A DNA stretch of 14,484 bases from Thermodesulfovibrionales bacterium (GTDB lineage: Bacteria > Nitrospirota > Thermodesulfovibrionia > Thermodesulfovibrionales > UBA6898): the NCBI GenBank assembly GCA_044450345.1, contig JBIOIY010000064.1:1-14484 (forward strand), read 5' to 3'. A program made the position numbers and the translations under genes. Under the pieces are notes generated by a model. The model was not told where the DNA came from, did not search any database, and saw only the letters and a list, made by a program, of their open reading frames with translations. Below, piece after piece: positions 1-11,432 of the stretch. Each line of letters opens with the position of its first letter. The first letter of the stretch is position 1.

Positions 1-741
1 ACCACGGCTGTTTCCACTATTGCAGGGGATAGTACCGGTCTGCCCAGCTGGCTCTGGAGTTCCGTTACAGTCAATCCTGTAGGAGGCGGCACCTCCCGCT
101 CGAAATACTTTAACAGTTCCGGCACATGGACGGTGCCTACCAATGTGTCTCTCATCTGGGTCACCGCTTGGGGAGGAGGAGGGGGCGGCGGCGGCGGTCA
201 AAACAATAATGGCTGGGGTATATGTTCAGGCGGCGGCGGCGGTAGCAGCTCTTTTGTATCGGCCTATCCTTTGGCTGTGACGGCTGGAGGCACTGTCACA
301 ATAACTATCGGTGCCGCAGGCCCTGGCGGTCCCGCAAACGGTAACGGCTCATACGGTGGGACTACAACTGTCACTGGCAGTATTAATTCGGTAAGTGTCC
401 CCGGGGGGCAGGGTGGTTGTGGCTATAGTAGCTGTCCCGGAAGCTATCCATCCACTAACTGCTCCGGGGGTAACGGCGGCAGTCCCAATTATTGGACTGG
501 AGGGGCAATGGCTGGAATCAACGGCATTGACGGGTTGCTTTCCTCTATGGGGTCGAAGGGGGGAAACGGCGGCGCAGGATATAACGGCCCGGGCGGTGTG
601 GGCTCGAGTACGGGCAACGGTGCCGCAGCTACAGCCAATACCGGCGGAGGTGGTGGAGGAGCAAAGTATAACATGGCTTTCGAGGGTTACGTGGGAGGGG
701 CTGGCGGCTCCGGCGGTGTCATAATCGCATGGATACAATAA
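1..741 (+). CDS. 5'-truncated protein with a C-terminal glycine-rich domain (adhesin, tail-fibre or pilus-tip-like)
   Basis: Frame +1 is open from base 1 (TTAVSTIAGDSTGLPSWLWSS...), so the real start is probably upstream of the window. It contains the motif YFNSSGTWTVP..V..IWVTAWGGGGGGG and ends ANTGGGGGG...GGAGGSGGVIIAW, typical of Gly-rich domains of tail fibres and adhesins. Confidence 0.75.
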   Translation, partial: TTAVSTIAGDSTGLPSWLWSSVTVNPVGGGTSRSKYFNSSGTWTVPTNVSLIWVTAWGGGGGGGGGQNNNGWGICSGGGGGSSSFVSAYPLAVTAGGTVTITIGAAGPGGPANGNGSYGGTTTVTGSINSVSVPGGQGGCGYSSCPGSYPSTNCSGGNGGSPNYWTGGAMAGINGIDGLLSSMGSKGGNGGAGYNGPGGVGSSTGNGAAATANTGGGGGGAKYNMAFEGYVGGAGGSGGVIIAWIQ

Positions 742-761
742 AAAAATTTTTGGAGGTTGCT

Positions 762-1403
762 ATGCACCTACGATTATCAATTCTTTTTGTTTTACTTTTG
801 TCATCCTGTGGCGGCGGCAGCGCAGGGAATCCAGGCACACAGATAGGCGGAGGTTCTTGGGGCGTTATCACTGCTTCCATCGCGCCAGGGGTTGATTCCA
901 GTTCCAGTTCATCTTCTTCCACAACGACTCTGGCGGCCAGAGGCAGGGATGTGGACATTTTCCAGACAGCAAACTGTAGTACTAGCCCGACCACTCCTGT
1001 GCCTGAGCCGTTTACCGATCACGATTCAATCGTAACACTCACTTTGAGCGCAGCCAATCCTAAAGAGCCGGTTCAGAACTACATAGTTGAAGGCTATCGT
1101 ATTGACTACACCACCGAAACTCCTGGAGCTCCTCCTATAGCGTCTTTCACATCGGGATCGCAAAGTATGATTTTAGAACAGGACAAGTCCCTCACACAGC
1201 AGGTGGTCATGGTGGATATCAGCCGCAAATTAAAACTGGCGCAGGATCTTACTTCGGGACAGTACCAGCCGGCAGCGACATATCCGACCTACACGGCGAT
1301 ATACACATTTTATGGCCATGATATCTACGGCAACGCTTTTCAGACCGTGGTTCAGACAAACTTTGAGGTCGGGGATTTTAACTATTGCCCCGCGGGGGCA
1401 TAA
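762..1403 (+). CDS. Hypothetical lipoprotein (213 aa)
   Basis: RBS GGAGG at 752-756 precedes ATG 762, a better start than 729. Signal peptide MHLRLSILFVLLLSS-C with lipobox, poly-Ser linker, beta-rich body and a possible Cys pair (ANC...NYC). Confidence 0.8.
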   Translation: MHLRLSILFVLLLSSCGGGSAGNPGTQIGGGSWGVITASIAPGVDSSSSSSSSTTTLAARGRDVDIFQTANCSTSPTTPVPEPFTDHDSIVTLTLSAANPKEPVQNYIVEGYRIDYTTETPGAPPIASFTSGSQSMILEQDKSLTQQVVMVDISRKLKLAQDLTSGQYQPAATYPTYTAIYTFYGHDIYGNAFQTVVQTNFEVGDFNYCPAGA

Positions 1404-1412
1404 GGGACTGAG

Positions 1413-3239
1413 ATGAAAAAATATATTCGCCATAGCATGTTCCCCAGGATCTCTTCAATGTGCTTCGCTGTTGCGCTTCTTCTTTCAATAGCGTCGTGTA
1501 GCGGGGGAGGTGCCGGTTCACCGACCGTTTCACAGGGTGTAGGCACACCTGCTACAAACCTTTCCCTTTTTGCCGATAAAGTGGTCGTTGGGACCGGCAA
1601 TCCCATACTCCTACAGGCGGTCCTGAGTGACGGAAACGGTAAACCCCTGGTCGGGCAGCCTGTCGCATTTTCAGTTGTAAGCGGTGCTGCTACTATTGCG
1701 TCGCCTCAGGCCACGACAAATACAAAAGGCGTTGCCACGTCAGTGCTTTCCAATGTAAATCTTCTGCCCGGGATTGTCGTAGTCACCGCTCAGACAGCCG
1801 CCGCCGGGGCCTCTCGGGTCCTCTACTTTTTAAGTTCTCCTGATAGCTACCCGGCGTTATCTTTAGTGCCGGATGCAAACGGCGATGGCCGTTTCGGGGA
1901 GCCCGCGGACTATACGGTCGAAGCAGACGGACATAGCAGTGTTCTTCTGAAAGTCACCGATTACGACATGACCGGCACCCTTGCGCCCGGCAGGTCCATT
2001 ATTTTTGGCTCAGACTTTCAGGGTCTTACTTTCGATAAGTCCAGGGCGGTCACAGGTTCTGACGGAGCTGCCTACGCCTCTTTCACTATTTCTGCCGCTT
2101 CTGTGAACAATAAAACAGCAATCACCGTTTACGCAACGGACTCCACAAACGGAGTATCCGATTTAATAACGGTCAATGCCACGCCTATTACCGCTGGCAG
2201 CATAAATATGACGGCGGGCAATGTGTCGATCACTACCGCCCTACAGACAACCGTCACCGCGTGCGTGCTGTCGACGGATGGCCTCGCTATGCCTGACGGT
2301 ACCCTCGTCCGCTTCGGCGTGTCACCGCAATCCGGAGGCAGCATCGACCAGATTCTTGCCAATACCAAAGTCGGCTGCTGTAGCGTTAACTTTACGGCAG
2401 GGCAGACCCCAGGTCGCGTCTCCGTGACTGCAAACAGCCAGGGCGTCTCGGGAAGCATCGCACTTACTGTAAGCAATCCCCCGCGACCGCTTGCTCTTAC
2501 GCCCGCGACGGGCAACGCCTCCATTAATACGTCTCTTACGATGATGGTTACCGGCGGTGTCGCCCCTTATCATGCGCTTGCAAATACATCCACTGCTTCA
2601 GTAAAAGGTGGTAATGTGACAAGCGACGGCGGTACCTTCACCGTGTCTGATTCCGCTGCGGAAAGCGTGGGTATCACCGTTCATGACTCCGTGGGCAATA
2701 CTGCCACTGGTTCGGTTGTATTTACGGACAATACGTCTCCCCTTCTGATCTCGCCAGGTGCGAGCTCTGGAACTATGGGGAAGAATTATCTATTTGCGGT
2801 AACAGGTGGTGTGCCGCCCTATCAGATCATGGCGGGGTCGACAACTGCAACGATTAACCCGTTGAAGGTTATTACTAACGGAGGCACCTTCCAGGTCAGC
2901 GATACTGCGGCAGAGATTGTTACGATTACCGCACTCGATTCACGTATGACAGCGGCCACCGCGACAATGACTTTCACTGATAATACGCCCCTTGTCGGGG
3001 TATTGCCTCAGGGCGCTTCAGTTGCTATTGGGGTTCCAATCTCTTTTTTTATTACGGGAGGGACTGCTCCCTTTAGCGTATTTCTAACCTCTACTACGGC
3101 TGTCGCAGTGCCTGCCACTGGGATCCCATCAGGAGGAACGTTTACGGTTACGGACACAGCCCCTGAGAGTGTCATCGTAACCGTTGAGGATGCTCATAGC
3201 CAAACAGCTACCTCTACCTTAACCGTGGTAGGGCCATAA
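1413..3239 (+). CDS. Surface lipoprotein with Ig-like (invasin/Big_1-like) domains and three C-terminal ~84-aa repeats; putative adhesin
   Basis: Lipobox IAS-C. Big_1-like segments (A.LSDGNGKPL.GQ.V.F...ATTNTKGVA; DG.AMPDGT.V.F). DANGDG Ca-binding-like loop. Thr/Ser/Val/Gly-rich. Three TGG.(A/P)P(Y/F) repeats. Confidence 0.8.
   Translation: MKKYIRHSMFPRISSMCFAVALLLSIASCSGGGAGSPTVSQGVGTPATNLSLFADKVVVGTGNPILLQAVLSDGNGKPLVGQPVAFSVVSGAATIASPQATTNTKGVATSVLSNVNLLPGIVVVTAQTAAAGASRVLYFLSSPDSYPALSLVPDANGDGRFGEPADYTVEADGHSSVLLKVTDYDMTGTLAPGRSIIFGSDFQGLTFDKSRAVTGSDGAAYASFTISAASVNNKTAITVYATDSTNGVSDLITVNATPITAGSINMTAGNVSITTALQTTVTACVLSTDGLAMPDGTLVRFGVSPQSGGSIDQILANTKVGCCSVNFTAGQTPGRVSVTANSQGVSGSIALTVSNPPRPLALTPATGNASINTSLTMMVTGGVAPYHALANTSTASVKGGNVTSDGGTFTVSDSAAESVGITVHDSVGNTATGSVVFTDNTSPLLISPGASSGTMGKNYLFAVTGGVPPYQIMAGSTTATINPLKVITNGGTFQVSDTAAEIVTITALDSRMTAATATMTFTDNTPLVGVLPQGASVAIGVPISFFITGGTAPFSVFLTSTTAVAVPATGIPSGGTFTVTDTAPESVIVTVEDAHSQTATSTLTVVGP
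2487..3236 (+). repeat. Three tandem protein-level repeats of about 84, 83 and 83 aa
   Basis: Units start at 2487 (PLALTP), 2739 (PLLISP) and 2988 (PLVGVLP). Each has TGG.(A/P)P(Y/F), GGTF.V(S/T)D(S/T)A.E.V and (I/V)T..D....AT. Confidence 0.9.
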
Positions 3240-3240
3240 A

Positions 3241-4107
3241 ATGTGTCACCCGGGATTGAAAACGGCTTGGGACCGAAGGTTCTTTGAGTCCTGCCTTTTC
3301 GCGTTCTTTGCTGTTTTCATCCTGTTTACCCAGATACCGATATCCTCTGCGGGCGAGTACTTCTCCTGTGATCAGATGGACCACTTCGCCTCGGAGAGTT
3401 CCTGTGCCCAGGCGCAGACGGCACGAAGAGCCGCGGCGCAGCAGCAAAATTCCACAGGCAAACAGCAGGAAAATGGCGGATTCACGAAAGAACAAATTGA
3501 GCTTTGGGCGGAGCCTACCGTAGACAGCAGCGGAAAAGTGATTTCCAAGTTGCCGCCTCTTCCAGTTCTAAGGGCCCTTGCGGATCCCACCCCGGAAAAT
3601 GCGCAAGCCTATATTGAGTGGAACAAAAAAAGGGCTGATGCGCTTTCCAAATTCGTACATCTGACTTCTCCCGGCGAGGATAAGACGCTTACGCTTCAAA
3701 ACGTCAGCGAGATCAAAAAAGTTGATTTCTATTTCTCACCCACATGCCCTTATAGTATGCAGCAAGCTCCCGTTGTTGAAGGGCTTGCAAAGAAGGTAGG
3801 GTATACAAAGGTTGCCGCATTTACTGCTTCAACGGATATCCGGTCCATACAGGACTTCGTGCAAAAAACAGCGATTATGATGAAAATATTTATTGCCCCG
3901 GATAGACTGTCCCAAAATGGAGTAACCGCTGTTCCTGTCACAATTATAGAGACTATTGATGGTCGCAAACTTAGGTATGATGGCTTCACAGATAATTTTA
4001 TCGGCAGCCCATCAGGGCAAAACGCTGCGGATACTGCAGCGGGGATATCGCAGTCCCTTTCACAGGGTAACAATCAAGGGGGGAAACAGCAATGCGGAGC
4101 AAAATGA
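3241..4107 (+). CDS. traF: TraF-like pilus assembly protein with a thioredoxin-like fold
   Basis: N-terminal hydrophobic signal. TraF-type motif ALADPTPENAQAYIEW. Thioredoxin-like FYFSPTCPYS and GVTAVP. Lies directly upstream of traH/traG-like genes, as in traFHG operons. Confidence 0.7.
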   Translation: MCHPGLKTAWDRRFFESCLFAFFAVFILFTQIPISSAGEYFSCDQMDHFASESSCAQAQTARRAAAQQQNSTGKQQENGGFTKEQIELWAEPTVDSSGKVISKLPPLPVLRALADPTPENAQAYIEWNKKRADALSKFVHLTSPGEDKTLTLQNVSEIKKVDFYFSPTCPYSMQQAPVVEGLAKKVGYTKVAAFTASTDIRSIQDFVQKTAIMMKIFIAPDRLSQNGVTAVPVTIIETIDGRKLRYDGFTDNFIGSPSGQNAADTAAGISQSLSQGNNQGGKQQCGAK

Positions 4108-5303
4108 TTTTCATCGTGACCATAGCGGCCCTTTGGTTCGTAAATCAAGCTGCCGCCGGCGATCTGATGCAGCAATACCTGCAAAATAATAGCCAGTACT
4201 CAAAGGGACAAATCAGCTATAGCTTAGGCCCGACTATCCCTGCTCCAAGTGGTCAAAGCACCACTGTGAATCTGAGTGCAGGAATTGTTCCTAATGGAAG
4301 CTGCGGAGCCCTTTCGCTCAAGGCCGCGTTGCCGTCCATATCGCAGACAGTTCAGGGGCTTGAAAACCAAGCCTTCGGGATACTGAATGGCGTAATTACA
4401 AGTGCGCCGATGCTGGCTATTTGTTATGCGAGTCAAACGTTGTGTGATATCTATAAGTATTACAGGGCGAACGCCAACGCCGCACTTACTTTTAAGCAGA
4501 GCCAGTGCCAGGCCATAGAGAAACTTGCGGCCGATGCAGGAAGCTCGCTCAGAAATCAGAGAATCATGCAATGCATACAGGAGCACGGTGGTGACTATAC
4601 CGCCGCACTCGATGATTGTGGGACACCAACTGACCTACACGACCCTGTTACCGGACAGCTTACTGCAGGGTATAAACTATCTGACGTTGTGGGAAACGTT
4701 GCCCCTGATAATCCTGCGGTGAACCAATACGTTACCCAATTGTTAGGCGACATTCAATTCAACGCATCTGCCGGCATGAGCACATTGAATGCCCAAAGGT
4801 TAGGGCAGGAATACATGCTGGGGGACCTTACAAAGAAATACTATAACGCCTTAAAATCATACGACGGCACGGTTCCCCCGGCCGGAGATCCCTTTTATCA
4901 GACAGTATCAACCCCGGGGTTTCCTCTGAATCCGATGATAATGAATAAAATTGTGCTCTTAGACCCCGCAACCAGAGACAATTTTTATCAGGGATATGCA
5001 ACTGTAGCATCGATGACGGAAATGACTTACAGGATAGAAGATGCGACAAACGCCTTAGAGACAGCAAAAAATTCTCAAAAAGATAAAGATTCAATCGCCA
5101 AGACTGAGCAGTTTATCACGCAATTGCATAGGGAATATGACATGCTGGAAAAGAAGATGGCTCTCCAAAGAGATTATCTCGTCCCGATGTTCACAGCATT
5201 AATGGCTACCCAGGTTCCGGGGCGACCGGGGATTGTTACACCGGTCGACGTCCAGAACTCGCGGCCTCCGTTGCCTACACTTAATTCGCCGTGGTCCAAA
5301 TGA
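4092..5303 (+). CDS. traH: TraH-like periplasmic conjugation protein, resembling the PFGI-1-class ICE PFL_4711-type family
   Basis: Signal peptide; SCG motif; APMLAICYASQTLCDIY...QCQAIEKLA segment; C-terminal coiled coil; position between traF and traG. An alternative start at ATG 4104 overlaps the traF stop (ATGA). Confidence 0.65.
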   Translation: MRSKMIFIVTIAALWFVNQAAAGDLMQQYLQNNSQYSKGQISYSLGPTIPAPSGQSTTVNLSAGIVPNGSCGALSLKAALPSISQTVQGLENQAFGILNGVITSAPMLAICYASQTLCDIYKYYRANANAALTFKQSQCQAIEKLAADAGSSLRNQRIMQCIQEHGGDYTAALDDCGTPTDLHDPVTGQLTAGYKLSDVVGNVAPDNPAVNQYVTQLLGDIQFNASAGMSTLNAQRLGQEYMLGDLTKKYYNALKSYDGTVPPAGDPFYQTVSTPGFPLNPMIMNKIVLLDPATRDNFYQGYATVASMTEMTYRIEDATNALETAKNSQKDKDSIAKTEQFITQLHREYDMLEKKMALQRDYLVPMFTALMATQVPGRPGIVTPVDVQNSRPPLPTLNSPWSK

Positions 5304-6784
5304 CTAAAGCGGGAGTCTTTTCTATAATTGTCGCTGTCTTTGTCTCTTTACCTGCCGTTAAAGCACATGCCTTTATGGATGGCCAGAACTTTGCCTGCCC
5401 GATTGAATCTGGAGCCACAATCGGGCAGCAAAACCTCGGGCAACTGATCAATCAAGATTTTCACATTGTCACTAGTTCTGCTCTAGGGGGCTCTGCCTTT
5501 AAAGCCGCTTTTGCCCTTGCTGTTTTTGTCATGATTGTTAAATTTGCTTTCGGGAAGGGGCAGGAAAGCTTCGTCGAATTTGTTGCTTACTTTTTGATAG
5601 CCGGGGCGTTAGTCGCGCCGGTACCCGGGGCAGGGAAATCTATCCTGCTCCTGGGCGCTGACATGGGGGATTCAATATTTCAAAATATCGTGCAACAGAT
5701 TGGCGGACTCGATAACAGAGTCCCGGGCGGCGGTGCAGGCGCCCTAGCCGCTTTCAATACGAGTCTACAGGCTGCCGCAAAAGATCAGCAAGCGAACATG
5801 AACTGGTTCAATAAAAATTGCTATGGGCCGGTCACCCAATTGGCCGCCCAGTCAGGCATCCAGTTTACGGGCCCTACCGACCCGGCTTTGGATAATTTCA
5901 CAGCTACTGTAAGTAACCAGTCGGTACAGAGCGGATATAACAATTTAGTAATTGAACCGCCTACCTGGGCCATGAAAGCCTTTACGCCGCTTACCTCAAC
6001 CCCCGGACAGATCTCATGTTCTGACCTCAAAAAAGAGATAACGTCCAATCTGGGCACTGCATATTCAACAACTCTTCAGGCTTACCAGACTCAGTTAAAC
6101 CTTCCGGCCGGTTCGCCAGCCGGTCAACTCTTTTCGAAATATCAACTTTCAAACGGTAGTTCTGGTATTACCCCGGATGAAGTTTTCAAGGATGCTTTCG
6201 CACAGAGCAGTGCCCGCTATTCGATGGATCAAACAGACTTGATGCCCTCCTGGCTTAGGCGTATTGTGGGCAACGCCCCGGGCGAAGTCGGTCAAGGTGG
6301 ATATAGTTGGGGCGATATTAGTAGGGGTTTTGCCACGTCCCCTTTCAGGCTTGTGATGATGGAGTTGGGTGAGCTTTTTGTTTTTATATTCGATTATTAC
6401 ATATACAATATGGTATCCGTTATAAAAATGTTTTCCGCGATGGGAATGGCTTTTGGCATCCTTTATTATATGTGGTTCAAGCGCCTTGACCTGCCTCTTG
6501 GCGCTCTTGGGGTATGGCTATCCGCTAACGGATTTTATGTGGTTGCCGCCATTGCTCTGGATCAGTTCTATAAAAAGGCCGACTACACTGTCTATTCAAC
6601 CTCCCTAACTATAGGGGGAGCGAAAAATGCACTTCAGGATGCGCTTTTTACAGTGGCGCTAATGGGGACTATGAGTACTGTATTAGCGGGTTTGCTGTCT
6701 TGGAAAGGAGCGTCTTTCGCAATGCACCACTTCGCCAGAGGCGGTGACGGATTCACTAAGGCGGCAAAACTGGCGATGAAATAG
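5300..6784 (+). CDS. traG: TraG N-terminal-domain (VirB6-like) inner-membrane protein, short form (494 aa)
   Basis: ATG 5300 overlaps the traH TGA (ATGA). N-terminal TM helices, a periplasmic region with the Cys pair FNKNCY...ISC, and several C-terminal TM helices. Follows traF-traH. Confidence 0.65.
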   Translation: MTKAGVFSIIVAVFVSLPAVKAHAFMDGQNFACPIESGATIGQQNLGQLINQDFHIVTSSALGGSAFKAAFALAVFVMIVKFAFGKGQESFVEFVAYFLIAGALVAPVPGAGKSILLLGADMGDSIFQNIVQQIGGLDNRVPGGGAGALAAFNTSLQAAAKDQQANMNWFNKNCYGPVTQLAAQSGIQFTGPTDPALDNFTATVSNQSVQSGYNNLVIEPPTWAMKAFTPLTSTPGQISCSDLKKEITSNLGTAYSTTLQAYQTQLNLPAGSPAGQLFSKYQLSNGSSGITPDEVFKDAFAQSSARYSMDQTDLMPSWLRRIVGNAPGEVGQGGYSWGDISRGFATSPFRLVMMELGELFVFIFDYYIYNMVSVIKMFSAMGMAFGILYYMWFKRLDLPLGALGVWLSANGFYVVAAIALDQFYKKADYTVYSTSLTIGGAKNALQDALFTVALMGTMSTVLAGLLSWKGASFAMHHFARGGDGFTKAAKLAMK

Positions 6785-6818
6785 TTAGCCAGTTACCGAG
6801 AGAGGTATCAGTCCCAGC

Positions 6819-7028
6819 CTACGTGTGCTTGCGCAAAAATTGTATGAAGGCACCCAACACGATGATTGCCAATATAAAATCGCTTGTGTCGGAATGGCCT
6901 ATAAAAGGTGTCAGCAACCAGCGCAATCCGAAAAATAATGAGCCACAAGCCAAAAAAGCCACCCCATAAAGCCCCCATAAATAATCCCCTGCGTCTATCG
7001 TAACCATGAACCGTCTTTTTCTCTCCAT
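6819..7028 (-). CDS. Small 2-TM membrane protein (69 aa); candidate entry-exclusion protein
   Basis: Strong RBS AAAGGAG and its own sigma70-like promoter. Two hydrophobic helices with basic termini. Convergent with traG, the arrangement of eex in SXT/R391 elements. Confidence 0.65.
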   Translation of the reverse strand: MERKRRFMVTIDAGDYLWGLYGVAFLACGSLFFGLRWLLTPFIGHSDTSDFILAIIVLGAFIQFLRKHT

Positions 7029-7053
7029 ATCTAATACTCCTTTCTATACTTTA

Positions 7054-7081
7054 TTTATAGGTTTTTTAAACATTTTGTCAA
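7054..7081 (-). promoter_or_regulatory. Sigma70-type promoter for the small membrane protein gene
   Basis: On the minus strand: TTGACA (7081-7076), 16-nt spacer, TATAAA (7059-7054). Confidence 0.65.
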
Positions 7082-7119
7082 TACCCCCTCAGTCGCGGAG
7101 TCGTTTTTAATATCTCCTA

Positions 7120-7239
7120 TATCGCCATTGCCAAAACCCTCTAGCAAGGAAACAGGCAGGGCGATACGGGTGCCTTCTTCGGAAGGTGCAGGGTGAGTCA
7201 CTCTGCTGTACTCTCTCGGGCGTGCGGCGGGGTGACTCA
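7120..7239 (+). promoter_or_regulatory. Structured 5' leader of traT with three consecutive hairpins
   Basis: Hairpin 7120-7166 (TATCGCC-A-TTGCC/GGCAG-GGCGATA). Hairpin 7170-7189, 8 bp with a C(UUCG)G tetraloop. Hairpin 7194-7239, 18 bp, whose four non-Watson-Crick positions are all U-G pairs on the + strand. Confidence 0.75.
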
Positions 7240-7269
7240 AATTCTCCCACGAGCGGAAAGGAGTATTTC

Positions 7270-8004
7270 ATGACAACTAAGTATAGAGTGTTGCTCTTGG
7301 CAGTTTTCGCCTTGGCAGTCGCTCTGCTGTCCGGCTGTGGCGGTACCATCCAGGCTATTCAGAACAGGGATATGTCTCTTTCGGCCAAGATGACTGACAC
7401 AATCTTCCTTGACCCGGAAACGATCATAGACCACCGGAATGTTTTTGTTCGTGTCACAAACACATCAGACTTCCAGGAGATAGATTTCAGCAACATACTT
7501 AAGAACAAACTGGCTTCGAAAGGATTCACGGTCACTACTATAGCGAAAGGCGCCTATATCGTACAGGCCAATCTGCTGTATATGGGGCAAGAAAAGAAGG
7601 ACCTCACGGCTGACGGCATGATCGCGGGCGGTTTCGGAGGCGCACTATTGGGGAGTACCGTAGGCTCCGGCTGGAAAGGCCCCTCCCTCGCCGCTGCGGG
7701 AGCAGGAATTGCCGGAGCTGTGGCCGGGGCTGTTGTCGGCTCCATGATACATGTGGATACCTACTTTGGCGCTGTCGATATCCAGATTAAGGAGCCAACA
7801 GACGAAGCAGTAGAACGAGCTGTCCGGACTGATGCCCAGCAGGGATCTTCTACTACTGTTAGTACTACCAGTTCTAAAGTGACGGATAAACAGGAATACC
7901 GTACCCGCATCGTTGTGAAGGCTACACAGACCAATATCAACCGCATGGAAGCTTGTAACGCAATAGCCGATCGGCTGGCAAATCAGATTGCCGGCTTGTT
8001 CTGA
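7270..8004 (+). CDS. traT: TraT surface-exclusion / complement-resistance outer-membrane lipoprotein (244 aa)
   Basis: RBS AAAGGAG at 7257-7263 before ATG 7270. Lipobox LSG-C; AIQNRDMSLSAKMTDTIFLDP; NTSD; YIVQANLL; Gly/Ala zipper; DIQIKE; YRTRIVVKA; C-terminal IAGLF. All match the TraT family. Confidence 0.93.
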   Translation: MTTKYRVLLLAVFALAVALLSGCGGTIQAIQNRDMSLSAKMTDTIFLDPETIIDHRNVFVRVTNTSDFQEIDFSNILKNKLASKGFTVTTIAKGAYIVQANLLYMGQEKKDLTADGMIAGGFGGALLGSTVGSGWKGPSLAAAGAGIAGAVAGAVVGSMIHVDTYFGAVDIQIKEPTDEAVERAVRTDAQQGSSTTVSTTSSKVTDKQEYRTRIVVKATQTNINRMEACNAIADRLANQIAGLF

Positions 8005-8019
8005 TTAAATACATTTACC

Positions 8020-8041
8020 CGACTGGCCTAACAGCCGGTCG
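8020..8041 (+). other. Stem-loop downstream of traT without a U-tract (possible 3' mRNA stabiliser or attenuator)
   Basis: CGACTGGC-CTAACA-GCCGGTCG forms an 8-bp stem with one U-G pair. Confidence 0.5.
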
Positions 8042-8067
8042 CTGTCGTTAACCAACTGGAGGAATAT

Positions 8068-8832
8068 ATGACTCAAAGGATTCGAACAAAATTAAGGGCT
8101 GGACTGCGATTCCTGCTGACTACTGGAATTGCAGCTATGTTATTGCTTTCTCTCACAGTATACGCTCAGGCAGCCGGATCGGCTAAACAAAAATATGTGA
8201 GCGTCGATGATACGATGAAGCTCCTCGACCGGCTCGGCGTAACCAAAGGGAACCCTCTCACCTACGTGAAATCGTCTGACACAGGGGAAAAGGAATGGCG
8301 CGCGCACTTATTCACCTTGAACCAGGGAGGCGTAAACCTTCCTCTTATCACCTACGTCAATAAAAGTGATGTCGTAGTCGGTCTGCTTATACGCAACGGT
8401 AAGCTCGTTATCCCTAAGATTCCCGTCGAGGAGATGATGCCGGCTATGAATATGAGCCAGTCAAAGGTTACCTCCGAAGGGAGGATATCCTTCAACCCTG
8501 CCGGGAAAGAGACAATTTATATGTTTACGGACCCGGACTGCCCTTACTGCCAGCCTATCGAGAAACTCTTGGCCAGCTATAAAGGCAAATACAAAGTAGT
8601 GCTCAAACATTTCCCGCTCGAACAGATTCATCCCGGGGCGAAGGAAAGAGCTCTAGAGAAACAGTGCATGGCGATGAGCTCCGGATGTGACGACAAATCA
8701 CGCCAGGTTGCGGCCGCAATCGTTGATGAGGACATGAAAGAAGCATCAGCGCTGGGGGTTGACGGCACGCCCTTTTTTATTACCGACAAGGGCAAGGTCA
8801 TTGCACAGATCCCTGACCTGGGCGCCCAATAA
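8068..8832 (+). CDS. dsbC: DsbC/DsbG-like periplasmic thiol:disulfide isomerase
   Basis: RBS GGAGG; signal peptide; FTDPDCPYC active site; HFPL..IHPGA; GVDGTP cis-Pro loop. Such genes commonly accompany Cys-rich F-type Tra proteins. Confidence 0.85.
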   Translation: MTQRIRTKLRAGLRFLLTTGIAAMLLLSLTVYAQAAGSAKQKYVSVDDTMKLLDRLGVTKGNPLTYVKSSDTGEKEWRAHLFTLNQGGVNLPLITYVNKSDVVVGLLIRNGKLVIPKIPVEEMMPAMNMSQSKVTSEGRISFNPAGKETIYMFTDPDCPYCQPIEKLLASYKGKYKVVLKHFPLEQIHPGAKERALEKQCMAMSSGCDDKSRQVAAAIVDEDMKEASALGVDGTPFFITDKGKVIAQIPDLGAQ

Positions 8833-9833
8833 TGCAAATGAAAAACGCCTCTGTAATACTGATTCTGTCGCTAATGCTTCTGATGGCGCTCGCACCCCCT
8901 GCCGGCGCCGATGACACCGTTGACTTGTTCAATTTCCTTAAAGTTCTCGACCTCGAGCAGTGTCTGCTCAAAAGTTATCGCTGTATGCCTTTTGCGTGCG
9001 TCGATAAATGGGGTATACCTATAGGCGACCGTATCTGCCATAACGTGCCCGTGGGCTTTGTAGAGACTCCTACGGCCCCTTTCACCACTGTTGTGCCCAT
9101 GGTAGGAGTAATACTGGATGCCCTTTCAAGCTCTCTTGGACAGTTTCCGGGATCTGGCGGCAGCTCGACTTCATCCTCCGGGGAAACACACCTTAAATTT
9201 TTCGAAGCGCATGTGTTCAATATGCCGACGAGGACCTTTATAAAGTTCAGATATCCCTTCCTCAAAATGTGCTACTACGGCAGCACGCCCTGGGAGGTAA
9301 ATTATGTGTCTGAGGCCGACGAGCCCAACTGGCGCATGGGGTTGGCTGATTTCCTTACAATGGACTTCCTGACGGGTGCAATAATGCAAATATCGCAGGC
9401 CTGCAGTGTCACCGCAGTTGCCGACAACATAGGCGATACCATCGGTGAGAATATTTCGATCGGGGGCCAACTGTTGGGCGATGCATGTATGGGAACCTGG
9501 GGAGTGACATACCCGAGGACCGGTTACTCTAACGCCTATTCCGAGCCGGTTGCTTCAGGCATTGCCGCCTATAGGGCAAGCAGGGTGGTGGCTAAACCGC
9601 TTATGCGACTTGTATTTATGCCTAAGTTATTCGACCCAAATTTAAAGATGCAGCTGGGATATCCCTCTTACGGGAAACCGCTGAACTGTTTCAGTAAGGG
9701 CGCTACCCCACTGGTATGGGACAATTTCACAACCAAACTTCCAAAAGGAACAGGTTATATATGGGTACTATGGGAAAAAACATGCTGCTGCTATCCGCCA
9801 ACAGGATGCGTGGGGTTGCCCGGTACTATGTGA
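8832..9833 (+). CDS. traU: TraU-family conjugative transfer protein
   Basis: Signal peptide; Cys-rich; YVSEAD..NWR; CMGTWGVTYPRTG; C-terminal YIWVLWEKTCCC. The start overlaps the dsbC stop (TAATG). Confidence 0.85.
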   Translation: MQMKNASVILILSLMLLMALAPPAGADDTVDLFNFLKVLDLEQCLLKSYRCMPFACVDKWGIPIGDRICHNVPVGFVETPTAPFTTVVPMVGVILDALSSSLGQFPGSGGSSTSSSGETHLKFFEAHVFNMPTRTFIKFRYPFLKMCYYGSTPWEVNYVSEADEPNWRMGLADFLTMDFLTGAIMQISQACSVTAVADNIGDTIGENISIGGQLLGDACMGTWGVTYPRTGYSNAYSEPVASGIAAYRASRVVAKPLMRLVFMPKLFDPNLKMQLGYPSYGKPLNCFSKGATPLVWDNFTTKLPKGTGYIWVLWEKTCCCYPPTGCVGLPGTM

Positions 9834-10801
9834 TAGGTCTGCTCTTCCTGGCCTTCTGTTGTCCCGCATACGGCGACGACGCTACGACGAAGGCCCAGGG
9901 CGACCTTATCATACGTACTAAGAAATCAGGGGATTTACTTACGTCTCCAAAAAAGACAGCGTCTCCTCAGGATAACGCTATAAAGAAAACGGTCGCTGGG
10001 AGCAAACAGCCGGCTGCGGCGCAGGCGAGCTCTGTTTCCGCTGAGGAGCTACTTAAACCCTCTAAAAATTACCTGGACGTCTACCTGGGTGCCTGTCAGC
10101 CCACACCGGAGGCCATCAGCGCGGTAAAGCGTTTTCTTGCGAGCCACACTGGTTTTGCCGCCCAATATTTTATGATGAACACACAGTCTGATAAGGCACC
10201 AGACATGAGCGGAGCTAAGGGCATAGAGTTCTATCTGCCACTGGATGCCCGCCGCTATGACATAAGAACTGTGCCATCTTTTATCCTCAACAAAGATGGT
10301 GTCTCTTACAAGATAACGGGGGTTGCTGAGATCTCGGACATATATGACGAGATAGAAAAAAAGACTGTTCAGGGAGAAAAGAAGGGAGAGTACATCGACC
10401 TAGGGGAGCGCGGCAGAGGTTGTCGCGCCTTAGCACCCGATTTCAGACCTACCTCTCTTACTGCTGAGCAGCGTAAAGAAGTGATGAGGGAACAGCAGTT
10501 GCCCCCCCGGGGCCTTACGCTTCGAGATCCTATCACGTTGCCGGAGCAAAACGCCCCGGTGCATATCGTCAAGGAAGCTGACGCGATCCGGGGGCTTAAG
10601 ACTTTTGTGGTGTTTTCCGAGCGACATAAGACATGGGCCAAGCAGCAGTTTGCAGCCGGGGCCACCGGCTGCTGTACAGACTGTGTAAAGCTTGATGGCC
10701 TGTGGCCTCATGCGCAATATTGCACAAAAGAAATGCTCGCTAAACTGGGAGTGAACGGGGTACCAACTACAATAACCTTTGGGAGAAATGCCGCTAACTA
10801 A
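9806..10801 (+). CDS. traW: TrbC-TraW-like fusion pilus assembly protein
   Basis: Signal peptide from ATG 9806 (GTG 9830 is an alternative; 9716 overlaps traU too far). TrbC-like PLDARRYDIRTVPSFIL...ITG. TraW-like DLGERG......PDF and C-terminal LAKLGVNGVPTTI. Confidence 0.55.
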   Translation: MRGVARYYVIGLLFLAFCCPAYGDDATTKAQGDLIIRTKKSGDLLTSPKKTASPQDNAIKKTVAGSKQPAAAQASSVSAEELLKPSKNYLDVYLGACQPTPEAISAVKRFLASHTGFAAQYFMMNTQSDKAPDMSGAKGIEFYLPLDARRYDIRTVPSFILNKDGVSYKITGVAEISDIYDEIEKKTVQGEKKGEYIDLGERGRGCRALAPDFRPTSLTAEQRKEVMREQQLPPRGLTLRDPITLPEQNAPVHIVKEADAIRGLKTFVVFSERHKTWAKQQFAAGATGCCTDCVKLDGLWPHAQYCTKEMLAKLGVNGVPTTITFGRNAAN

Positions 10802-11432
10802 CGCACCAAAAAATTCTATGAATGGTCATGCATATGAAATAAATATACGCGAAGAAGGAGAGAGAGTCTCATGTCCTGTCACATTGGGGATACTCCAGAC
10901 GATAAACCTAAAGGGTGAAGCGCTCTTTGCCCACTCTGTTATGGTGGGTACGTTGGCGGAACTCGTAGGCACTTCCCTTGGACTTGATAGCCGAAGTATC
11001 GCTGTTTTAAAGATTGCTGGCCTACTGCACGATATTGGGAAGATCGCTATCAGTAACGAAATCCTGTTGAAACCATCCCAATTAAATAAGCGGGAGATGG
11101 AGCAAATCAGGGCGCATCCCGAGCAGGGCGCAAAGGCCCTCGCTAGATTGGAGGGATTTGGGCAGATTGCGAAAATAGTACTCTATCATCACGAAGCCGA
11201 TAACGGTGAAGGATATCCGCACGGCCTCAAAGGAGACCAGATTCCGCTCGAATCAAAAATAATTCGGTTTTGCGATATGTATTCGGCTATGACAAGCGAA
11301 AGACCTTATAAGCCGTCGTATTCGCATCGACATGCCCTTCAACTCTCGATAGAGGCGTTCAGCGTCCCTGCACACGATCGCAGGATAGTACAGGGGGTCC
11401 TAGACGGCGTGATGGTTGTAAAAGGTGTTTAG
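10788..11432 (+). CDS. Stand-alone HD-GYP domain protein (cyclic-dinucleotide phosphodiesterase family)
   Basis: HS..V, GLLHDIGK, IL.KP..L...E, HPEQG, HHE..NG.GYP.GL.G.QIP, D.Y.AMTS.RPYK. Start is uncertain (10779, 10788 or 10818). Confidence 0.9.
   Translation: MPLTNAPKNSMNGHAYEINIREEGERVSCPVTLGILQTINLKGEALFAHSVMVGTLAELVGTSLGLDSRSIAVLKIAGLLHDIGKIAISNEILLKPSQLNKREMEQIRAHPEQGAKALARLEGFGQIAKIVLYHHEADNGEGYPHGLKGDQIPLESKIIRFCDMYSAMTSERPYKPSYSHRHALQLSIEAFSVPAHDRRIVQGVLDGVMVVKGV

Follow-up and report, generated by a model that had tools for sequence, protein, structure and literature searches.

Conjugation systems have been sorted into eight MPF classes from 2013-era complete genomes, in a classification that already reports homology of TraU, TraW, TrbC, TraF and TraH between MPF_F and MPF_G (PMC4027160); a 2025 review notes a lack of data for phyla uncovered recently (PMC12282955). 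Type IV pili are described as serving conjugation in R64 and PAPI-1 (PMC12857230). Our literature search, with subscription journals and supplements outside its scope, found no description of the subtype presented here, and ICEAfe1 was rejected as a known match, being described with TraN and a 1218-aa TraG (PMC6370655).

Comparison of the window (positions 1-14,484 of contig JBIOIY010000064.1, from a Thermodesulfovibrionales assembly) with its relatives suggests, from sequence, that this Nitrospirota DNA-transfer machine is probably a conjugation subtype that has yet to be classified. Our joint reading, held with moderate confidence, is that the window carries accessory genes of a conjugative element, for pilus maturation and the membrane channel, that the machine forms a third lineage next to MPF_F and MPF_G (a part that we consider likely), and that the system has its own type IV pilus. 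Every ORF named in a first-pass annotation was found where it had been placed, on the + strand, and the motifs quoted there are present in the window translations (Table 1); the traF-, traH-, short traG-like, traT, dsbC, traU and trbC/traW-like genes are real. The TraF-like protein aligns with F TraF by hhalign (97.9%), and its gene is not adjacent to traH in either of the full relatives described below. The contig is a fragment.

Table 1. Features of the window, contig JBIOIY010000064.1
Feature	Position	Strand	Basis or remark
Gly-rich (PF21722) protein, 5'-truncated	1..741	+	putative pilus-associated adhesin or minor pilin partner
Lipoprotein-like protein	729..1403	+	homolog in relative G061, 27%
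Ig-like (Big_1) surface lipoprotein-like protein, candidate adhesin	1413..3239	+	G061 homolog, 27%
TraF-like thioredoxin protein, CPYS	3241..4107	+	PF13728 27.0 bits (cut-off 23)
TraH/TIGR03755-superfamily Cys-rich periplasmic protein, unclassified family, 403 aa	4092..5303	+	sequence, profiles, tree
Short TraG/VirB6-like inner-membrane protein, 497 aa, without long C-terminal domain	5291..6784	+	position, hydropathy, weak similarity
TraT surface-exclusion-type lipoprotein	7270..8004 (likely start; ORF open from 7186)	+	PF05818 184 bits
DsbC-like disulfide isomerase, CPYC	8068..8832	+	profile match, CPYC motif
TraU-family protein with G-like motifs	8832..9833	+	PF06834 78 bits; outside F and G clades
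TrbC/TraW-like thioredoxin-fold protein	9716..10801 (true start probably near 9806)	+	profile, predicted fold
HD-GYP protein	10779..11432	+	adjoins the module in relatives too
HerA/DUF87-like ATPase, 421 aa	11540..12805	+	38% homolog near left end of G061 ICE

Fuller copies of the system were found in two Nitrospirota MAGs, G061 and G062, whose core consists of a small pilin-like/TraL-like pair and then traE-K-B-V-C, that is, traA-L-E-K-B-V-C in F-like order (TraE, TraB and TraV named by Pfam, TraK by a profile of our own, the TraA/TraL-like proteins by size and position only). Best matches for TraE, TraB, TraV and TraC are F-type, TraB matching F-type PRK13729, and the G-type core families TIGR03746/49/52/51 gave no match at E ≤ 0.01 among the core proteins of either relative. 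Both also carry a MOBH relaxase, the coupling protein TraD, a lytic transglycosylase, TraF, DsbC, TraU, TrbC/W-like, TraH-like and ~500-aa TraG-like genes, as well as a cluster encoding a type IV pilus (secretin, PilB, PilC, PilT-like, N-methyl pilins); TraX is present in G062, whose pilus cluster has a PF21722 gene at its end. The G061 element is an ICE of ~86.6 kb, with a tyrosine integrase, att repeats at a tRNA gene, relaxase, coupling protein and T4SS, bounded by a 48-bp repeat at tRNA-Gln (contig C5, 12933-12980 vs 99496-99543, 93.75% identity; tRNA-Gln at 99497-99570). Distribution is patchy: among 60 relatives one other genome gave a match, a weak one of F type. The top-ranked plasmid VirB4 is 23.9% identical.

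The TraH-like protein had been thought to resemble the PFL_4711-type family, and its best NCBIfam match is indeed TIGR03755, at 20.7 bits against a cut-off of 270; by profile score the family is likewise nearer to G (family-G 151.8, family-F 103.4, G-F 54.2). The motifs cited for that resemblance do not discriminate, and we rejected them as class markers: SCG occurs in 2 of 17 family members, 1 of 8 G references and 1 of 19 F references, and L.RE...L in 1/17, 1/8 and 2/19, respectively. The family is homologous to F TraH by hhalign (98%). The window protein matched no Pfam family at E ≤ 1 and, in the curated profile search, not PRK13723 TraH; PF06122 TraH was found in 0 of 4 carrier genomes vs 9 of 10 plasmids. 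There was no match to the TraH-like protein among 72,556 plasmids, none in the PDB by Foldseek at E ≤ 0.001 for its predicted model (pLDDT 78), and no relative in viral-contig scans with three sub-alignments. For TraU, the proposed likeness to the PFL_4710-type family held at the level of motifs, which separate the family from F (WR.G in 15/15 family members, 6/8 G references and 0/21 F references; YPR.G in 15/15, 4/8 and 0/21); the window protein scores 26.7 bits on TIGR03756 (cut-off 188), and the family is equidistant by profile (family-G 145.6, family-F 145.9, G-F 90.3) and lies outside the G clade. PRK13737 was not matched by the window TraU.

The genes called TraG and TrbC/TraW are present, but their profile links are weaker than those names imply. 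The window TraG-like protein has no real family match (PF07916 was matched neither here nor in G061 or G062), and the family profile reached F TraG at 66% and G TraG at 43% probability (hhalign). Its ~500-aa length, correctly described by the first-pass annotation as G-type, and its position after the TraH homolog agree with G systems, while the sequence link to G is that weak 43%; lengths are 464-500 aa in 12 family members vs 912-1469 aa in 17 F references. A pooled profile of our own (TraG_new, 28 of 80 loci) was rejected as one family, and its count does not represent one, because hhalign links the Nitrospirota and the other short TraGs at only 17%. The TrbC/TraW-like protein has no family match in curated profiles; its profile aligned with pooled F TrbC/TraW at 89% over 56 columns, and a thioredoxin fold is predicted. 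None of the TraH-like, TraG-like and TrbC/W-like proteins scored above any curated family cut-off, so that the lineage would be undercounted and gene flow in Nitrospirota and soil phyla consequently underestimated.

Best matches are mixed, with the G061 VirB4 at 292 bits on F-type TIGR02746 vs 74 on G-type TIGR03744 (73.6; cut-off of the latter 520.6) and the G061 TraH-like protein and TraU scoring best on G-type TIGR03755/03756, all far below cut-off. Trees of VirB4 (with sequences from the relatives, not from the window), TraH and TraU contained 13-18 F and 5-8 G references, with support given as SH-aLRT on quick trees. In the VirB4 trees the F references formed one clade (98-100) and the G references another (99-100), and the window family stood apart from both (98; 85 with G418; 96.8/86.8 in a further tree); in the TraH and TraU trees F and G references again had their own clades, with the family outside both. 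AU tests, under a non-mixture model and for a few chosen nestings, rejected placement of VirB4 with two F subgroups, and of TraH and TraU with one F and one G subgroup (P < 0.001). The mixed matches, the low scores and the deep branching in three trees bear out the earlier suggestion that this T4SS subtype is divergent and poorly typed. It has the look of an ancient third lineage, intermediate rather than a recombinant mosaic; such a lineage would resemble both F and G, given the homology already published for TraU, TraW, TrbC, TraF and TraH of the two classes (PMC4027160).

A sister-to-F position was never rejected, for any marker (P 0.19-0.61), and sister-to-G was rejected on the VirB4 ATPase domain only (P = 0.028) and not for TraH or TraU; the family could therefore be a basal, simplified MPF_F subgroup that has lost TraN and the TraG C-terminus, making a separate class needless. 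The F-like gene order and best matches of the core, TraX in G062, TraT in the window and the top Atlas cluster for the TraH-like protein (50% PF06122) are consistent with this. Yet all F references, those from Nitrospirota and Desulfuromonadia included, cluster to the exclusion of the window family, PF06122 misses its TraH-like protein, and the WR.G and YPR.G of its TraU are absent from 21 of 21 F TraU proteins; we regard a basal subgroup as rather unlikely. Much of the difference between it and a third lineage is a matter of where the class boundary is placed.

One reading of the mosaic or intermediate that the first-pass annotation had proposed, an F-derived core joined by recombination to G-derived TraH, TraU and TraG, would account for the split of best matches between VirB4 and TraH plus TraU, for the TraH profile being closer to G than to F, and for the AU rejection of sister-to-G being confined to VirB4. 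No marker nests within either class in the nestings tested, however, the family is apart in all three trees, and TraU is equidistant by profile, so that true recombination of F and G parts seems improbable; an ancient swap before the two classes radiated is possible.

The assembly that contains the window is 91% complete and has the type IV pilus cluster on a different contig, which ends, past that cluster, in a gene start 91% identical to the window's PF21722 gene. No VirB4 or VirB10 was found in this genome; TraE/K/B/V/C, TraD and MOBH, sought by tblastn and with profiles, gave weak unrelated matches and the window's HerA/DUF87-like ATPase only, which at 421 aa is too short and was rejected as VirB4. 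The combination that marks an ICE in G061 is not found there. As the assembly shows no VirB4, TraB, TraD coupling protein or relaxase, the sequence suggests that the window copy may be a remnant, perhaps no longer self-transmissible. A domesticated or secretion/uptake T4SS, for which the missing relaxase and coupling protein of this assembly and some distant metagenome loci consisting of a TraF-TraH pair alone among chromosomal-looking genes might speak, is nonetheless very improbable, given MOBH relaxase and TraD in both full relatives, integrase and att repeats in G061, and the patchy distribution.

TraN PF06986 was found in 0 of 5 carrier genomes, and our own TraN profile found none in the ORFs of the window's assembly, in the G061 and G062 stretches, or in 80 mostly short metagenome loci; a missing match is no proof of absence, because the carrier genomes are incomplete MAGs and the profile could fail to recognise a divergent adhesin. 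Cells are likely held together by a type IV pilus of the system's own. In the scheme that we propose, the element would excise, and relaxase and TraD would hand its DNA to a TraC-powered TraB/K/V channel like that of F; DsbC and TraF would fold the Cys-rich TraH and TraU, which would aid assembly of the conjugative pilus; a type IV pilus able to retract, together with Gly-rich and Ig-like adhesins, would draw donor and recipient together, standing in for TraN and the TraG C-terminal domain; and TraT would confer surface exclusion. A type IV pilus need not replace TraN, since in the Ca. Manganitrophus plasmid one accompanies an F system of the ordinary, TraN-carrying kind, and the present system offers a natural test of whether it can.

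More tentatively, and with less than even confidence, we suggest a ninth MPF class that would rank equally with F and G, in little-studied phyla (Nitrospirota, soil lineages and probably Planctomycetota). It would have a channel and pilin resembling those of F, a TraH radiation (at least 254 clusters at 50% identity) that includes MPF_G's TIGR03755 as one branch, a type IV pilus encoded by the element for contact between cells, and no TraN. If true, this would tell what form the common ancestor of F and G had, and the class may include the IncP-2 megaplasmid system. The lineage is relevant, too, to the question of why F and G have accessory proteins in common without being neighbours by VirB4.

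Among described systems, MPF_F (F, IncC, R27, pCAR1, pPRO1, ICEAfe1) shares with the window family the core gene order, the best matches of TraB, TraV, TraE and TraC, the TraF, TraU, TrbC/W-like, DsbC, TraT and TraX proteins and, in IncC and R27, MOBH; unlike it, the family has no detected TraN, a far shorter TraG-like protein, a TraH that fails PF06122, and VirB4, TraH and TraU outside the F clade. The Ca. Manganitrophus plasmid CP114554 is likewise a Nitrospirota element with T4SS, type IV pilus cluster, and traU followed by a trbC-like gene, but is of ordinary F type, with annotated TraN, TraH and long (split) TraG, its TraH and TraU falling in the F clade. IncI1 R64, likened here without sequence comparison, also encodes a type IV pilus used in conjugation, beside an MPF_I machine. 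The IncP-2 megaplasmid pBT2436 and the Comamonadaceae plasmid pOS401 share TraD, TraE, TraB, TraV, VirB4, SLT, TraU, a type IV pilus cluster and the lack of a TraN match in the stretches read; unlike the family, they have no TIGR03755 match and, in those stretches, no TraH-profile match; their VirB4 is also outside F and G, and its grouping with the family is unsupported (SH-aLRT 31-54) and not rejected by AU. MPF_G (pKLC102/PAPI-1, ICEclc, ICEHin1056) differs from the window family, which has an F-type-scoring core, F-type TraB, a TraF-like gene, TIGR03755/03756 scores far below cut-off and a position outside the G clade, but resembles it in the ~500-aa TraG, TIGR03755-like TraH, WR.G and YPR.G of TraU, MOBH relaxase, tRNA-integrated ICE, lack of TraN and, as in PAPI-1, a type IV pilus.

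Phylogenies of VirB4 (TraC, taken from relatives of the window system), TraH and TraU, proposed in the first-pass annotation as one check on its idea of an F/G intermediate or mosaic, set the family (the window-type conjugation system and its relatives) apart from the F and G (MPF_F and MPF_G) references in all three cases. In VirB4 trees, from which near-identical or partial rows had been removed, the F references formed one clade (SH-aLRT 100 with 13 rows, 98 with 18 rows, 99.8/99.9 with 13 rows), the G references a separate one (99-100), and the family, joined by relatives from soil metagenomes, yet another (98; 85 when G418 is included; 96.8/86.8). In the TraH tree the 18 F rows stood apart from the remaining 35 (99), the 8 G rows being a single branch amid the new families, and the TraU tree gave F (100), G (99) and the family (100) as three separate groups. 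G418 is a genome with another odd system, in which TraE/K/B lie ~55 kb off, a further pilus cluster is present and TraN is missing; its long branch falls in neither the F nor the G clade in any of the three trees.

AU tests of chosen nestings (LG+F+G4, 10,000 replicates) rejected the family within two F subgroups for VirB4; for TraH and TraU they likewise rejected it within a single F subgroup and within a single G subgroup (p<0.001 throughout). Sisterhood to F was rejected for no marker (p 0.19-0.61), sisterhood to G on the VirB4 ATPase domain alone (p 0.028), and F+G as one clade was not rejected for TraH and TraU either; the apparent G-side place of TraH is therefore not established by the tree. 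Profile scores bring the family's TraH closer to G (151.8) than to F (103.4; F-G 54.2) and leave its TraU equidistant (145.6 to G, 145.9 to F; F-G 90.3), both being closer to F and to G than F is to G. The proposal is thus supported as a divergent F/G intermediate outside both clades and not supported as a recombinant mosaic. The family looks like an old lineage, not a recent F/G chimera, and is probably a real conjugation subtype, apparently undescribed; it may plausibly stand as its own MPF class.

The window makes up all of contig G000:C64. The seven genes first named in it (traF, traH, traG, traT, dsbC, traU and trbC/traW-like) are indeed intact ORFs. Pfam cut-offs are passed by TraF (27 bits, cut-off 23), TraT (184), the DsbC-like protein (42) and TraU (78), and by none of the TraH-like (403 aa), TraG-like (497 aa) and TrbC/W-like (361 aa) proteins. 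Scoring against NCBIfam, as had been suggested, gave G-type models only, below their cut-offs: TIGR03755 for the TraH-like protein (20.7 bits, cut-off 270) and TIGR03756 for TraU (26.7 bits, cut-off 188). As class markers the proposed TraU motifs held up, WR.G occurring in 15/15 family members, 6/8 G and 0/21 F references and YPR.G in 15/15, 4/8 and 0/21; the TraH motifs did not separate F, G and the family. The 497-aa protein is TraG_N-like in position and hydropathy, with profile probabilities of 66% to F TraG and 43% to G TraG and Atlas leads (including TraG_N, TrbL and CTnDOT TraJ clusters) that all fall under the bar; short TraGs from other lineages match G TraG (98.5%) and F TraG (97.4%) by profile. 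The 361-aa protein has a predicted thioredoxin-like fold (pLDDT 68; best E 9e-4) and reaches 89% against a pooled TrbC/TraW profile. TraT was seen in the window alone, being absent from the fetched stretches of the fuller relatives G061 and G062 and from 80 metagenome loci, and is probably a separate acquisition. The HD-GYP gene is kept with the module in Nitrospirota relatives (L002, L003, L005), a neighbourhood hinting that c-di-GMP controls the pilus or transfer.

Coordinates and gene content of the features discussed
Feature	Location	Strand	Remarks
Seven-gene module	window 3241-10801		
Gly-rich (PF21722) gene start	window 70-172		
Gly-rich (PF21722) gene start	G000:C50:1-103		pilus-cluster end
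Membrane-like ORF, 69 aa	window 6819-7028	minus	between traG and traT
TraT	window 7270-8004		
HD-GYP gene	window 10779-11432		
Integrase, coupling protein, relaxase	G061:C5		tyrosine integrase, TraD, MOBH (TraI_2) relaxase
Pilin-like ORF (104 aa), TraL-like ORF (85 aa)	G061:C5		by size and position only
Core	G061:C5		TraE, TraK-like, TraB, TraV, TraC, then type IV pilus cluster
After pilus cluster	G061:C5		Ig-like proteins, SLT, TraF, DsbC, TraU, TrbC/W-like, HD-GYP, TraH-like, TraG-like
NusA-like protein	L010:9576-10757; L016:10422-12347		upstream of transfer genes, both full elements
Odd system	G418:C4 (L035, L036, L139-L141)		pilus cluster, TraU(283)-TraF-TraH-638-aa TraG-like-SLT-PilT-VirB4-TraD

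Fuller copies occur in the Nitrospirota MAGs G061 and G062. In G061 a 48-bp repeat (93.75%) lies beside the integrase and at tRNA-Gln, enclosing ~86.6 kb, which marks the element as an ICE. On G062:C2 these conjugation and pilus genes recur in a different order, together with TraX; the ends of that element were not found. For the G061 VirB4, F-type TIGR02746 gives 292 bits and G-type TIGR03744 gives 74, neither reaching the cut-off, and its top-ranked plasmid match has 23.9% identity. TraN (PF06986) was found in 0/5 carrier genomes, and PF06122 TraH in 0/4 vs 9/10 plasmids. The NusA-like protein of both full elements is a possible antitermination factor.

From this observed gene content and tree position we infer function step by step, and on balance favour a conjugative ICE. 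An F-like channel and F-like pilin would form its conjugative machine; TraH, TraU, TraF, DsbC and TrbC/W would serve pilus maturation, by analogy with F (PMC7555446); the short TraG would be VirB6-like; and in place of TraN the element may use a type IV pilus and its adhesins, by analogy with R64 and PAPI-1, whose conjugation is described as served by type IV pili (PMC12857230). Against this substitution counts the Ca. Manganitrophus plasmid, which has TraN and a type IV pilus together.

In the window's own assembly (G000) contig C50 carries the type IV pilus cluster, directed toward the contig end; at that end is the start of a Gly-rich gene, a second copy, 91% identical, of the one with which the window opens. 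The two contigs share no exact overlap and are probably neighbours; the assembly may have been interrupted at this gene by adhesin paralogs in tandem or by pilus-tip cassettes that vary. At its right end the window shares a 141-base overlap with C33, beyond which lie what we take to be an IS110-type transposase and housekeeping genes. VirB4, TraE/K/B/V, TraD and MOBH were all absent from the assembly (91% complete), and this copy may be a remnant or the assembly incomplete.

A GTDB scan based on a TraU alignment gave 44 pattern matches, of which 5 loci were confirmed, in four Nitrospirota MAGs and on a 4-kb contig labelled uncultured archaeon (L001, CABMDX010000091.1), whose dsbC-traU-trbC/W are 44-71% identical to the window's and which is likely mis-binned. 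One of these genomes, G312, belongs to the same taxonomic order as G000, so the window's host is probably a Nitrospirota. Sixty relatives examined yielded one weak TraU match, belonging to an F-type system. The TraH profile matched 21 of 401 genomes of the phylum, strongly in three (G000, G312, G126) and oddly in G418; 11 of 13 inspected among the remainder carry a TraN-like gene and appear to be ordinary F systems. A profile built from five TraH-like proteins found 254 clusters at 50% identity; in the 92 scanned from 150 listed, TIGR03755 matched 74, all below its cut-off with a top score of 53.8 bits, F TraH PRK13723 matched one (15.6 bits), and the members with a taxon name (3/20 looked up) were Nitrospirota and Planctomycetota. 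The G061 TraH-like protein had no match among 72,556 plasmids. The metagenome loci (80 kept out of 87 confirmed), mostly short, held TraF-like genes in 44, TraU in 20, VirB4 in 12 and TraN in none. Five high-GC loci (L080, L123, L127, L130, L132) have a TraF-like and TraH-like pair alone amid chromosomal-looking genes, presumably ABC transporter, LexA-like and MoxR/DUF58-like, with the TraH-like gene near 9.0-11.0 kb and no further T4SS match in the fetched flanks; their TraH groups with Planctomycetota-like sequences, and the pairs are possibly domesticated or scattered conjugation genes.

Our literature search, which covered text passages, found no description of the family's subtype. The eight MPF classes are defined on VirB4 phylogeny, and homology of TraW, TraU, TrbC, TraF and TraH between F and G was reported in 2014 (PMC4027160). 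In ICEclc, the TIGR03755 protein and IceU are both described as essential (PMC10018362), and 38 Planctomycetes chromosomes are reported to hold MPF proteins and no complete system (bioRxiv 2024.01.22.576637). For IncP-2 megaplasmids, traGBV and type IV pilus genes have been described (PMC7070040, PMC8849076). One of them, pBT2436 (L204; examined alongside pOS401, L183), is typed MPF_I by MOB-suite; with TraE/TraB/TraV-like genes, TraU and a VirB4 of 186 bits on F-type TraC, it looks mis-typed. The IncP-2 VirB4, like the family's, lies outside both F and G in the trees built here; its grouping with the family's VirB4 is unsupported.
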